The position numbers and the translations under genes were made by a program. From Candidatus Gottesmanbacteria bacterium RIFCSPHIGHO2_01_FULL_40_15 (GTDB lineage: Bacteria > Patescibacteriota > Microgenomatia > 2-02-FULL-39-11), in NCBI GenBank assembly GCA_001779115.1, contig MFJF01000001.1:1-48300 (forward strand): a stretch of DNA of 48,300 bases, given 5' to 3'. The notes below the pieces were generated by a model. It had not been told where the DNA came from and did not search any database. It saw only the letters and a list, made by a program, of their open reading frames with translations. Positions 9,392 to 12,921 of this stretch are shown here, piece by piece; position 1 is the stretch's first letter; every line of letters begins with the position of its first letter.

Positions 9392-12040
9392 TTATATCAC
9401 AAAATTAATCAGTTTGCCGGGTACAAAAACAGTCTTTTTAATTTTTTGTCCTTCCAGATATTTACTGACTCTTCCGCTTTTCCTGGCTTCCTTTTCGACT
9501 GTTTGCTGTTTTTTTGCTTCCAAACTGGCTATTTTCAGGCTGTCCCGTAACTTACCGTTAACCTGGATTATTATGACTGTCTTTTCCTCCTTCAGATACT
9601 TCGGATCAAAAGAAGGCCAAGGATGGATATGGATCGAATCCCTCCCCAACGCCAAATTATTCCACAACTCTTCCGTTATGAAGGGGGCAAACGGCGCCAA
9701 TAGTAACAGAAGGTTTTTAATATAAATTAAATCCAGATTTAACATTTGAGATTTGACATTTGATATTTCATTGACATACTCCATGATGTGGGCAATTGCC
9801 GTATTGTATTTAAGCGCGGCAATATCGTCGGTCACTTCCTTAATCGTCTTATGCATGGAACGTGTCAATGTGTCTTGAGCCCGATGATTATCGGAAGAAG
9901 TAACTCTCAATTTATTTGTGCTCGTATTCGCAAGAAATACTTCACTTTGGTTCAGGACCACCTCACTCCCGAGTCGCCAAACACGATTAAGAAAACGGTG
10001 CATCCCGGCAATTCCTGTATCCCGAAAATCTCCTCCCTGGTCAAATGGACCTAAAAACATCAAATATGTACGAAGTGTATCAGCTCCGTATTTGTTGATA
10101 TAGGCGTCGGGAATAACAACATTTCCCCTGGATTTACTCATTTTGGCTCCTTCGGCAATAATAAGTCCGTGGGCATAGAATTGCTCAAATGGTTCCTCAA
10201 AATCCAAATATCCGAAATCCTTTAAAGCCATTGTAATAAACCGGGCATACAAAAGATGCAAGACTGTATGTTCCGCGCCTCCGGTATACTGGTCAACCGG
10301 TAACCATTTTTTGGTAATATCAGGATCCCAGGGTATATTTTTACCGTCGCTTTCTTTGTTAACTGACGGATATCTTAAAAAATACCATGAACTGTCTAAA
10401 AACGTATCACAAACATCGGTTTCCCGCAGTGCCGGTCCTTTGCAATTTGGACATTTTGTTTCTACAAACGATTTGACTTTTGAAAGGGGTCCCTTACCTG
10501 TTCCCTCCGGTTTCCAGTCGGATACATCGGGAAGTTCAACAGGCAAATCTTTCTCAGCAACCGGATACCAACCGCCCTGTGCTGGAGCTGTTGAAGCACA
10601 TTTTTTACAATAAATCATCGGAATCGGCGCTCCCCAATATCTTTGTCTTGATATGCACCAGTCTCGTAAACGGTACGTAGTCACCCTCTTGCCCCACCCC
10701 TTCTCTTCTAAATAATCCATAATTTTTTCTGTCGCTTCATGAATATCCATCCCGTTTAAAAATTCCGAATTGACCATTGTTCCTTCTTCTTCCTGAACCT
10801 GTTCTTCACGGGTAATTTCCGATTTGTCTCCGTTTTTCCCGACGACAACCCTGATAATCTTCAGTTTAAATTTATTGGCAAACTGAAAATCCCTTGCGTC
10901 ATGCCCCGCAACCCCGACGACCGCTCCGGTGCCGAAATGTCCTAAAACGAAATCGGAAATAAAAATGGGCATTTTATAATCGTTCAGCTGGTTTACCGCG
11001 TAATATCCGGTAAACACTCCTGTTTTCTCTCTCCCCTCGGCAATCCTCTCCATCTCCGACTTCGCTTTAGCCCTTTTGACATATTTCTCAATCTCTGTTA
11101 GCTTTGAGCTTTGAGTTTTAAGCTTTGAATTTAGGAGGGTAGCGACGAAATCGTGTTCCGGAGCAACAACAACGAAAGTCGCACCGAAATTAGTATCCGG
11201 TCTGGTTGTAAAACAGGTAATTTTCTCTTTGGTTGGTCCGGTATCTGAAAGGATAGGATAAGTAATATTTATTCCTTCTTTTCTGCCGATCCAGTTTCTT
11301 TGGCCTACTTTTACTTTCCCGCTCCATTTGAATGACTCCTTAAAAGTATTTTGGTACAATTTCTCGCCGTAGGCTGTTATTTTGAAAAACCATTGCTCCA
11401 TCTCCCTTTTCTCAACCAAAGATTTACACCGCTCGCAGTGTCCGTCTATCACCTGCTCATCGGAAAGAACTGTCTTGCATGATGGGCAGAAATTAACCAG
11501 CGATTTTTTCCTGTATGCCAATCCGTGTTTAAACATCTGGATAAAAATCCATTGAGTCCGTTTGTAATAATTAGGATCATAAGTTTCCAGTGTATTTTCC
11601 CAGGCGAACCCGTTACCCGTAGCATGCAATTGCCGGTAAAAGTTTTTCTCACTGACAATAGCCTGCTCCTTTGGGTGCCTGCCGACCTTTAAGGCATAAT
11701 TTTCACTGTGGATCCCGAAGCCGTCCAGCCCGATCGGTTCAAAAACTTCAAAACCCTGCATTCTTTTGAAACGGCCGTAAATATCGGCACCCGTAAACGC
11801 GTAAACGTTACCCACATGAAGGCCTTCAGCCGAAGGATACGGAAACATCATCAGGTTATAAAAAGGTTTACGGGCGCGTTTTAAATCCGGCTGGTAAATT
11901 CTGACCTTCTCCCAATAGTGTTGCCATTTACCTTCAAATGACGTTGGATTAAAAGCCTGTTTACCCCGTGAATGCTTTAGCCTTTTACGGGGCCATTTTT
12001 TTTCAAACCCGGTCGGATTATATTTAATTTCTTTATCCAT
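9392..12040 (-). CDS. leuS: Leucine--tRNA ligase
   Basis: MFPYPSAEGLHVGN (HIGH motif), CPSC/CERC zinc motifs, FTTRPDT editing domain, RDWCISRQRYWG, DTFLDSSWYFLRY, KMSKS, IQVNGKLRD, VPGKLINFV. Confidence 0.98.
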   Translation of the reverse strand: MDKEIKYNPTGFEKKWPRKRLKHSRGKQAFNPTSFEGKWQHYWEKVRIYQPDLKRARKPFYNLMMFPYPSAEGLHVGNVYAFTGADIYGRFKRMQGFEVFEPIGLDGFGIHSENYALKVGRHPKEQAIVSEKNFYRQLHATGNGFAWENTLETYDPNYYKRTQWIFIQMFKHGLAYRKKSLVNFCPSCKTVLSDEQVIDGHCERCKSLVEKREMEQWFFKITAYGEKLYQNTFKESFKWSGKVKVGQRNWIGRKEGINITYPILSDTGPTKEKITCFTTRPDTNFGATFVVVAPEHDFVATLLNSKLKTQSSKLTEIEKYVKRAKAKSEMERIAEGREKTGVFTGYYAVNQLNDYKMPIFISDFVLGHFGTGAVVGVAGHDARDFQFANKFKLKIIRVVVGKNGDKSEITREEQVQEEEGTMVNSEFLNGMDIHEATEKIMDYLEEKGWGKRVTTYRLRDWCISRQRYWGAPIPMIYCKKCASTAPAQGGWYPVAEKDLPVELPDVSDWKPEGTGKGPLSKVKSFVETKCPNCKGPALRETDVCDTFLDSSWYFLRYPSVNKESDGKNIPWDPDITKKWLPVDQYTGGAEHTVLHLLYARFITMALKDFGYLDFEEPFEQFYAHGLIIAEGAKMSKSRGNVVIPDAYINKYGADTLRTYLMFLGPFDQGGDFRDTGIAGMHRFLNRVWRLGSEVVLNQSEVFLANTSTNKLRVTSSDNHRAQDTLTRSMHKTIKEVTDDIAALKYNTAIAHIMEYVNEISNVKSQMLNLDLIYIKNLLLLLAPFAPFITEELWNNLALGRDSIHIHPWPSFDPKYLKEEKTVIIIQVNGKLRDSLKIASLEAKKQQTVEKEARKSGRVSKYLEGQKIKKTVFVPGKLINFVI
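9738..9765. repeat. Degenerate 7-bp tandem repeat x4 inside leuS
   Basis: TTTAACA TTTGAGA TTTGACA TTTGATA; encodes ISNVKSQMLN on the minus strand. Confidence 0.75.
9872..9958. repeat. Imperfect palindromic element inside leuS
   Basis: GTCTTGAGCC (9872-9881) pairs with GGTTCAGGAC (9949-9958); inner GAAGTA/TACTTC pair. Corresponds to the atypical segment VLNQSEVFLANTSTNKLRVTSSDNHRAQD. Confidence 0.55.
11103..11130. repeat. Degenerate 7-bp tandem repeat x4 inside leuS
   Basis: TTTGAGC TTTGAGT TTTAAGC TTTGAAT; encodes NSKLKTQSSK. Confidence 0.75.
11923..12022. repeat. N-terminal duplication in leuS (69-bp period) flanking a GC hairpin
   Basis: YNPTGFEKKW and FNPTSFEGKW are separated by CCCCGTGAA-N11-TTTACGGGG (11964-11992). 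Confidence 0.65.
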
Positions 12041-12055
12041 ATATCTCTATCATAC

Positions 12056-12082
12056 AAAAAAATCCTCTCTTGGCGAGAGGAT
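12056..12082 (-). terminator. Intrinsic terminator (attenuator) in the leuS leader
   Basis: Minus strand ATCCTCTC-GCCAA-GAGAGGAT followed by TTTTTT, ending 15 nt before the leuS ATG. Confidence 0.85.
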
Positions 12083-12111
12083 AATATTTTTCCCACGCTC
12101 CTTCCTCGCCT

Positions 12112-12213
12112 TTAAGCGATTTCCGGAAGGGTAAGTGAAGACTTAAAAGTCTGAAATCCCATATCGGCCCGATTTAATCGGGACTGGTATTGGGATGATA
12201 ATAATCTTTTCAT
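12112..12213 (-). CDS. Putative leuS leader (attenuator) peptide, 33 aa: MKRLLSSQYQSRLNRADMGFQTFKSSLTLPEIA
   Basis: ATG at 12213, TAA at 12114-12112, 5 Leu codons (TTA TTA ... TTA ... CTT ACC CTT). Lies between a promoter and the terminator. Not in the ORF track. Confidence 0.65.
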   Translation of the reverse strand: MKRLLSSQYQSRLNRADMGFQTFKSSLTLPEIA

Positions 12214-12221
12214 TTTGATCT

Positions 12222-12251
12222 ATTTTATATCCTCTGCAAGGAAAAAATCAA
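12222..12251 (-). promoter_or_regulatory. Promoter TTGATT-N18-TAAAAT for the leuS leader
   Basis: Minus strand: TTGATT at 12251-12246 and TAAAAT at 12227-12222, 8 nt before the leader ATG. Confidence 0.55.
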
Positions 12252-12360
12252 ATAATTATTTTTTAACCGAATAAAAATATTTTAAAACCGCTTCCCTGTC
12301 AGTAAAGCTCACCAATGTCAAGATTAAAATGCAGCACCTGCTATGTTATACTGACTTCCG

Positions 12361-12921
12361 ATGTTCACAAAAACCGCCAAACACTCAATAATGCTTGTTA
12401 TCGCTCTTTTATTGACTTATTTTTGGATAAATCACGCTATTTTATCAAATTTTTCCCTCCAGTTAACCGCTTTCCTGATAATCTTCCTCATTTTGGCACA
12501 CCGTTTACTAAAAACACAAAATTTTCTCTTAACCGAATCGGTTATCTCAGGGATTAGCGTTGTTCTTATTACCGCTTCAACAGGCGGTCTTGCCAGCCCT
12601 TTTTTCTTTCTCAATCATTTCCTCCTCTTTGAGCTTTCACTCCTCTTGGAACCCTCAATTGTTATTACTTTAACACTATCACTAATGACCCTTTATATAT
12701 TCAGTCATCGTGTTGCGCCTTCATTTCATGACTTAACTCTTCTTCTCTCGTTTTTATTCATGACACCTATAGCCTATTTTACAGGTAATATTTATAACAG
12801 AATCAAAAACCAGAAAAAAGAAATAAAAGTTCTTTCGGAAAAAATTGAAAATCTGGAAGAAGAGCTGACTCACGAAGAATTGGAGCGCCTCCGCCGGGAA
12901 CATTTTGCTCTGCCTGCCTGA
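12361..12921 (+). CDS. ~5-TM membrane protein with C-terminal coiled coil (resembles a sensor-kinase membrane domain without the kinase)
   Basis: TM helices, STGGLASPFFFL motif and a charged coiled-coil tail; TGtTATACT (12344-12352) lies 8 nt upstream. Confidence 0.75.
   Translation: MFTKTAKHSIMLVIALLLTYFWINHAILSNFSLQLTAFLIIFLILAHRLLKTQNFLLTESVISGISVVLITASTGGLASPFFFLNHFLLFELSLLLEPSIVITLTLSLMTLYIFSHRVAPSFHDLTLLLSFLFMTPIAYFTGNIYNRIKNQKKEIKVLSEKIENLEEELTHEELERLRREHFALPA

Follow-up and report, generated by a model that had tools for sequence, protein, structure and literature searches.

Transcription attenuation by leader peptides is classically known from the trp, leu, his, thr and ilv operons of enterobacteria, and from their pheST with its pheM leader. 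For synthetase genes, classical attenuators were predicted before leuS and trpS in Streptomyces by Seliverstov et al. 2005 (PMC1262725), whose text also cites pheST. A leaderless leader peptide of 12 residues, three of them Leu, followed by a hairpin and a U stretch, is described for leuS of S. lividans TK24 in the text of PMC8079986, and for Deinococcus deserti the text of PMC4007540 reports that 14 leaderless leader peptides are predicted upstream of genes for synthetases and for biosynthesis. Here, we analyze a 48,300-nt stretch of DNA from Candidatus Gottesmanbacteria bacterium RIFCSPHIGHO2_01_FULL_40_15 (positions 1 to 48,300 of contig MFJF01000001.1, hereafter the window), in which the minus-strand region 12251..12056 precedes leuS. 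From comparison with relatives, this region is, in origin as well as in layout, probably an attenuator of leuS transcription that works through a leader peptide and a ribosome, and it is mainly the leaders of the relatives that support this reading. The host belongs to the Candidate Phyla Radiation (CPR, Patescibacteria), whose members have small genomes and few known regulators, and most of whose lineages have no cultured model.

With the Streptomyces leuS attenuator (leuL2), as the texts cited above describe it, the locus shares the target gene, a short leaderless or near-leaderless upstream open reading frame (uORF), which in the relatives has consecutive Leu codons, the antiterminator/terminator pair and the U-run, and the uORFs found here in relatives also have about 12 codons. 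It differs in its host (CPR/Patescibacteria instead of Actinobacteria, compared by architecture from the papers' text only), and the window copy carries a 60-nt insertion and only two regulatory Leu codons. In its published account, Deinococcus has a similar repertoire of leaderless cognate leader peptides before synthetase and biosynthesis genes, and leaderless mRNAs are common there as well; however, it belongs to another phylum, and its transcription starts were mapped, whereas those proposed here are deduced from sequence. The enterobacterial attenuators follow the same plan of four segments: segment 1 contains the regulatory codons, the stop codon falls between it and segment 2, and segments 3 and 4 form an intrinsic terminator. 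According to the text of PMC4007540, however, their leaders start with a Shine-Dalgarno site, whereas the uORF here is leaderless or nearly so. In addition, the targets here are mainly synthetase genes, in an organism with few biosynthetic pathways, and the Rfam leader families are unmatched. The T-box riboswitch likewise raises synthetase expression on uncharged cognate tRNA through a choice between terminator and antiterminator, but it senses the tRNA directly and without a uORF, and neither its TGGNACC motif nor its Rfam model is matched here.

A full-text literature search combining CPR, Patescibacteria or Microgenomates with leader peptide or attenuation found no paper. The first-pass annotation of this DNA, made from the letters alone, knew of no description of such a system in CPR, and for the host this holds within the literature searched. 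The mechanism itself is not new, having been published before leuS in Streptomyces, and the CPR host is the only new part within the literature searched.

Elements and predicted switch of the leuS leader

leuS, whose orthologues were present in 41/41 genomes searched, is separated by the intergenic region 12041..12360 from a divergent plus-strand ORF of 186 amino acids (aa), which has no Pfam match. Because the region sits between these two divergent genes, the terminator within it cannot be that of an upstream gene. The first-pass annotation had placed here a promoter, a near-leaderless 33-aa ORF with Leu codons 27 and 29, and three pairings (1:2, 2:3 and 3:4) followed by a U-run, and all of these were recovered at the same positions, the pairings base for base (Table 1). 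The -10 hexamer of the promoter-like site P1 ends 8 nt before the ATG of the uORF, which would therefore be leaderless or nearly so. Both the -35 and -10 letters of P1 are identical in the leader of one relative (G014), and the other leaders have a -10-like hexamer 6-12 nt upstream of the uORF start. Among the 852 long ORFs of the same genome, a Shine-Dalgarno-like motif was found before 66, while -10-like hexamers peak 6-8 nt before ATGs and end 5-14 nt before the ATG in 220/852. Many mRNAs of this organism thus seem to be leaderless, which makes such a start plausible for the uORF.

The minimum free energy (MFE) structure of the free RNA contains the terminator and the 1:2 pairs CCTTCC (12130-12125) with GGAAGG (12105-12100) and TCGCT with GGCGA. 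It extends 1:2 by five further pairs (12135-12131 with 12096-12092) and leaves the stop codon of the uORF (TAA, 12114-12112) in the apical loop of this hairpin. The terminator stem (12082..12062) consists of 8 bp with -11.1 kcal/mol. When segment 1 was masked, the MFE structure became 2:3, in which GGCGAG (12110-12105) pairs with CTCGCC (12077-12072) and AGGA with TCCT. The 185-nt leader as a whole folds with -53.5 kcal/mol compared to -39.5 ± 4.3 kcal/mol in 200 dinucleotide shuffles (z -3.2), none of which was as good.

Ribosome positions were modelled by masking the footprint (to +12 nt) in these folds, an equilibrium model that takes no account of the kinetic advantage of 2:3. When the A site was placed on Leu27 (CTT, 12135-12133) or Leu29 (CTT, 12129-12127), the antiterminator was the MFE structure (-14.9 kcal/mol), before as well as after segment 4 exists, and the terminator did not form. 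Placing it on the stop codon instead let the terminator form. The masked folds reproduce the switch as first proposed, in which a stalled ribosome frees segment 2 and a ribosome at the stop codon gives termination. They predict that in the window copy the antiterminator and the terminator are mutually exclusive, and that a stalled ribosome releases the former.

The element would work as follows. RNA polymerase would start at P1, at or a few bases from the AUG of the uORF, and a ribosome would load onto the leaderless or nearly leaderless 5' end. When charged tRNA-Leu is plentiful, the ribosome would reach the UAA in the 1:2 loop and cover the start of segment 2, the 3:4 terminator would form, and polymerase would stop at the U-run. 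Without a ribosome, 1:2 would form and transcription would likewise terminate. When charged tRNA-Leu is scarce, the ribosome would stall on the CUU codons in segment 1, leaving segment 2 free to pair with segment 3 ahead of the synthesis of segment 4, and transcription would continue into leuS. Such read-through would add expression on top of that from P2, a second promoter-like site just before leuS. In this scheme, we infer the transcription start, the translation of the uORF, the stalling and the response to leucine.

Table 1. Features of the leuS leader in the window, further leaders, and copies of the two-hairpin repeat. G000 is the genome from which the window comes.
Feature	Location	Strand	Basis or remarks
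leuS, regulated gene	9392..12040	minus	Pfam LeuRS editing domain, E 2e-55
Putative promoter-like site P1 (TTGATT, 18 nt, TAAAAT)	12222..12251	minus	promoter scan
Leader ORF, 33 codons and TAA	12112..12213	minus	ORF listing; homologous to the 12-13-codon uORFs of relatives (alignment A1)
60-nt in-frame insertion inside leader ORF	12143..12202	minus	clean 60-column gap in 5/6 aligned leaders
Regulatory codons CTT ACC CTT (Leu27, Thr28, Leu29), within segment 1	12127..12135	minus	align with the Leu runs of relatives
Segment 1, 5' strand of hairpin 1:2	12115..12135	minus	MFE fold; covariation on alignment A4
Segment 2, pairs with segment 1, or via GGCGAG and AGGA with segment 3 (antiterminator)	12092..12110	minus	folds, duplex statistics
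Segment 3, terminator 5' arm and loop bases CTCGCC	12072..12083	minus	terminator scan, fold
Segment 4, terminator 3' arm and U-run	12056..12069	minus	terminator scan: 8 pairs (4 G-C), 5-nt loop, T-run
TATGAT, -10-like hexamer, probable leaderless promoter P2	12049..12054	minus	scan TCGCCA-16-TATGAT, 9/12 matches; putative
pheS leader: 26-codon uORF, four Phe codons within six, terminator ~57 nt before pheS start	G000:C13:21657-21800 (L148)	plus	architecture equals that of the leuS leader
PALP+CBS (cystathionine-beta-synthase-like) leader: 15-codon uORF, two adjacent Cys codons, CCUCCC/GGGAGG terminator	G000:C19:28453-28568 (L149)	plus	
ilvD (dihydroxy-acid dehydratase) leader: 30-codon uORF, Ile/Val codon cluster, terminator abutting gene start	G000:C5:32351-32496 (L151)	minus	gene named by Pfam
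cysS-operon leader: 13-codon uORF, GTG start, three consecutive Cys codons, before PIG-L family deacetylase gene, then cysS	G141 (L131)		
Repeat of ~50-65 nt, two hairpins	window 12143-12202; C31:15396-15451; C7:35285-35338; L157 1501-1549; L158 1501-1548	minus; minus; minus; minus; plus	

Homologous leuS leaders and cognate leaders before other genes

leuS was taken from 40 relatives (Candidatus Gottesmanbacteria/Microgenomates, Patescibacteria), and the upstream regions were inspected. Five of these relatives carry a clearly homologous leader with a shorter uORF of 12-13 codons, in which 3-4 consecutive Leu codons stand a few codons before the stop. The stop lies in a hairpin loop and is followed by a G-rich segment, then by a terminator whose 5' arm is complementary to the G-rich segment, and then by a U-run. 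In total, the class yielded 10 leuS leaders, spread over 8 genera and 3 families, with the uORF in frame in 10/10. In all but the window copy, thus in nine, the uORF has 12-13 codons with a stretch of 3-4 consecutive Leu codons, so that a conserved uORF with late Leu codons, which the first-pass annotation had named as a check on its proposal, is present upstream of leuS in relatives. All six Leu codons occur among these runs, which argues that the amino acid itself is selected for, and not just a tract of pyrimidines. Outside the residue run, the peptide sequence is not conserved across leaders.

The stems of the leaders covary, as had likewise been proposed for testing. In alignment A4, which comprises nine leaders and excludes G016 (whose locus also gave an antisense match), G115 and leaders found later, 83.7% of the cells pair and 13 of the 24 pairs have changed on both sides. 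None of 500 shuffles matched this pairing, and all six slid registers were lower. The place of the stop codon in the 1:2 loop is constant across leaders, its identity being TAA, TGA or TAG.

The register of the antiterminator differs between families, and per-sequence duplexes were used instead of one column pattern in A4. For each leader, we determined the best duplex that the sequence downstream of its last cognate codon can form with the terminator 5' arm plus three loop bases. In 17/21 leaders, the duplex of segments 2 and 3 was better than in composition-matched shuffles (p<0.05). Matched pairs of these segments had a mean of -14.8 kcal/mol versus -11.1 kcal/mol for mismatched ones (3.6 better), and 0/5000 permutations were as good. 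A terminator is present in all 21 leaders; it belongs to the MFE structure in 21/21 with a ribosome at the stop, in 17/21 as free RNA, and in 8/21 with a ribosome on the first cognate codon.

The same scaffold was found with other residue runs: Thr before thrS (2 leaders), Phe before pheS (3), Tyr before tyrS (1), and Cys before a PIG-L/cysS operon (1) and a PALP+CBS gene (2). The suggestion that other synthetase genes be searched for leaders with their cognate codons was borne out in this way at thrS, pheS, the cysS operon and tyrS. Downstream genes were named by Pfam, and the pheS and CBS genes of the window's own genome by tblastn likeness to those of the relatives. Among the 20 leaders whose gene could be named, the cognate residue was the densest or tied within a 5-residue window in 19, and in 13 it was densest alone. 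The runs of Leu, Thr, Phe, Cys and Tyr are clear, those of Ile/Val and Met less so.

The genome from which the window comes (1.33 Mb) holds at least four such leaders, before leuS, pheS, the CBS-type gene and ilvD. A genome-wide architecture scan gave 16 candidates; it performed better than a scan requiring 3 like residues per 5, which was mostly noise and missed the pheS and CBS leaders. Another Cys-rich leader, in G011, precedes the orthologue of the PALP+CBS gene. By its codons, the ilvD leader looks like an ilv-type leader. Inspection of the upstream regions of thrS, two cysS copies, tyrS and metG in this genome showed no such leader. The ~300-nt region upstream of its thrS (G000:C13:18380-18700, locus L147) contains TGGAACC and no Thr-rich uORF; Rfam gives no T-box match for that stretch at E<=0.1, and we make no T-box claim for it.

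In four leaders (those of the own CBS and ilvD genes, the cysS operon of G141, and G105) the U-run abuts the ATG of the gene. This leaves no possibility for a bypass promoter, and read-through would be the only route of expression there. At leuS, a DUF2000 gene (Pfam) stands between the Leu leader and leuS in G016 (L039), and ~200 nt of other sequence does so in G018 (L016), suggesting that such a leader can drive a small operon. Weaker model matches (L041 in G009, L043 in G046, L047/L133 in G087, L134 in G128 and L048 in G105) consist of Ile/Leu/Val-rich or Phe-rich uORFs and terminators before genes without a Pfam match; in G105, this gene sits upstream of a class II D/K/N synthetase gene.

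The spread of the leaders was assessed with two covariance models. In the family (21 genomes; the order-level search covered the same ones), R1 at E<=0.01 matched 7 genomes, six times before leuS and once before an unnamed gene. In a class sample of 151 genomes, 10 were matched by R1 at E<=0.01 and 22 by R2 at E<=0.05. These 22 comprise 14 leaders with a residue run fitting the downstream gene (6 leuS, 2 thrS, 2 pheS, and one each for the PIG-L/cysS operon, the PALP+CBS gene, tyrS and, weakly, metG), 4 leader-like uORFs before unnamed genes, and 4 plain terminators. leuS leaders also occur in two families beyond the home family. In family f14, the model matched 2/7 genomes, none of them new. 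Among loci found through LeuRS, 2/80 named loci were matched by the covariance model, and 2/79 named loci holding the leuS 5' end by a scan for a uORF plus terminator. A phylum sample of 151 genomes gave three matches outside the class, which were plain terminators without a cognate uORF, and no true ones. R2 misses the own pheS leader and scores the own CBS leader with only E 0.12, so all these censuses are lower bounds. Within the genomes sampled, the distribution of the leader is patchy.

State of the window copy and alternative readings

The insertion in the window copy starts after the eleventh base of the uORF, is in frame, adds no stop and folds into two hairpins. Judged from the alignment, the length of 33 codons is not ancestral but due to this insertion. 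The inserted sequence belongs to a repeat family with three copies in the own genome and copies in two relatives (G006, G018), mostly just 3' of genes. It consists of a long hairpin with a core resembling CCCGATTAAATCGGG, then TTTC, then a second hairpin that is short and variable. The repeat had no Rfam match where tested; by its form, it is possibly an element like repetitive extragenic palindromic (REP) sequences or miniature inverted-repeat transposable elements (MITEs), or a small structured RNA. The repeat is also present on a short contig of another sequencing run. Among DNA contigs of four runs, three span all of 11900-12450 without a difference, and none joins across the 60-nt insertion; these near-identical contigs may be the source of this DNA, so they do not inform on the age of the insertion. 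Among the listed runs that contain this DNA, none is recorded as RNA. Kept in frame, the putatively mobile repeat may retune the timing between polymerase and ribosome in the window copy. The Leu run is reduced here to CTT ACC CTT, followed by CCG, and is weaker than in any relative. Segments 1 and 2 have changed together (CCTTCC/GGAAGG here, other letters in the relatives), and 1:2 is kept.

A number of observations weigh against the attenuator reading. As the first-pass annotation had cautioned, only 5/33 codons of the window uORF are Leu; at 15% versus 10.5% genome-wide, this is no enrichment. The window copy has two Leu codons split by Thr, and Leu is only tied as the densest residue. Taken alone, this copy shows no Leu enrichment, and the evidence against chance therefore comes from the relatives. 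A frame kept without a stop over 60 nt has, by our estimate, a chance of about one in ten, and the two stable hairpins of the insertion might hinder translation of the uORF or uncouple it from transcription. The 2:3 duplex of the window is marginal against shuffles (p 0.055, with the three loop bases, which hold CTCGCC, included); an earlier antiterminator statistic without the loop bases had given p 0.54-0.68 for this copy. Across the leaders, 8/21 keep the terminator in the MFE structure with a ribosome on the first cognate codon, and in 4/21 the free RNA lacks it. A4 was fitted to the structure of the model, which favours that structure, and related genomes are not independent. The leader is missing from 21/28 leuS 5' loci of relatives (present in 7/28, counting the own genome), indicating that it is dispensable, and the two genomes whose LeuRS is most similar (75-77% identity) are among those without it.

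The second caveat raised at the outset, that TATGAT before leuS could act as a bypass promoter, proved to be serious. The hexamer (12054-12049) lies 8 nt upstream of the leuS ATG (12040), which is the typical leaderless spacing of this genome, and P2 is therefore likely a real promoter. Several leuS leaders have a comparable hexamer after their U-run. By this spacing, leuS probably also has its own basal leaderless promoter. It may thus be expressed independently of the leader, and the dynamic range of the attenuator could be small. We read the arrangement as a basal promoter P2 combined with inducible read-through from P1.

Carried to its end, this line of argument leads to a relic, a leader of Leu-sensing ancestry that, owing to the insertion and the lost Leu run, would have ceased to respond to leucine and now act only as a constitutive terminator of P1 transcripts, with leuS expressed from P2. 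The two remaining Leu codons without enrichment, the structured 60-nt insertion inside the uORF, the spacing of TATGAT and the 21/28 loci without a leader all fit such a relic, which we nevertheless regard as unlikely. None of P1, the reading frame, the stop-codon position and the three pairings has been lost, and segments 1 and 2 changed together. Both remaining CUU codons lie inside segment 1, at the position of the relatives' Leu run, and a ribosome masked on them gives the antiterminator. Moreover, two regulatory codons suffice elsewhere, the E. coli trp leader having two Trp among 14 residues according to the text of PMC4007540. We accordingly hold to a leader-peptide attenuator of leuS, with lower confidence that the window copy still senses leucine well.

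Two further explanations would dispense with leucine sensing by translation altogether. With its own promoter-like site and terminator, a second promoter-like site before leuS, and a significantly stable fold (z -3.2), the region could be a separate small unit, either a small RNA or a gene for a hydrophobic micropeptide, functionally unrelated to leuS. This is very improbable, as the unit precedes leuS in 10 genomes of 3 families, its residue run tracks the downstream gene (Thr with thrS, Phe with pheS, Cys with cysS/CBS, Tyr with tyrS), the peptide outside the run is not conserved, and Rfam gives no match. At E. coli thrS, ThrRS binds a tRNA-like hairpin in its own leader. A leader of this kind, bound by LeuRS, or a T-box-like one bound by tRNA, would need no translation of the uORF; UAA, which occurs in the loop of 1:2 (UUAA), is also the anticodon of a tRNA-Leu encoded in this genome, and synthetase genes of Firmicutes are commonly under T-box control according to the text of PMC1262725. 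We give this explanation even less credence than the small unit. The loop triplet is the stop codon of the uORF and varies between TAA, TGA and TAG, which fits a stop codon and not an anticodon mimic, and a uORF with the cognate run is in frame in every leader. No TGGNACC was found on either strand in 12041-12360, in agreement with the first-pass annotation, and Rfam release 15 (4227 models) gave no match at gathering score in the window. These two results speak against a T-box riboswitch before leuS. At E<=10, Rfam returned only nine chance-level matches to unrelated families in 11900-12450, and ARAGORN found no tRNA or tmRNA in the window.

A candidate class-wide repertoire and the 5' end of leuS

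Taking the leaders of the different genes together, we lean towards the view that leaderless leader-peptide attenuators are a class-wide means of amino-acid sensing in CPR of the Microgenomatia type, serving synthetases and a few retained amino-acid enzymes. If this is true, the sequences themselves would be direct evidence that transcription is coupled to translation, and that charged tRNA is sensed, in organisms said to be almost without regulation. A recurring family of cognate attenuators would mean that the cells monitor the charging of individual tRNAs, adjust the matching synthetase, and couple translation to transcription on leaderless mRNAs. It would also provide an annotation rule for these genomes, namely a leaderless uORF of ~12 codons, followed by a G-rich segment and a terminator of the CCUCCC/GGGAGG type. 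The system is compact enough for in vitro testing.

The start of the leuS coding sequence differs from that of the relatives as well. LeuRS has ~20-29 extra N-terminal residues here (window 11900-12040, minus strand) that are absent from the relatives, whose alignments begin at residues 21-30. This extension, inside which lies a terminator-like plus-strand hairpin (11980-11993), repeats the motif NPxxFExKW found just after it, and by its sequence resembles a short duplication in tandem at the start of leuS.

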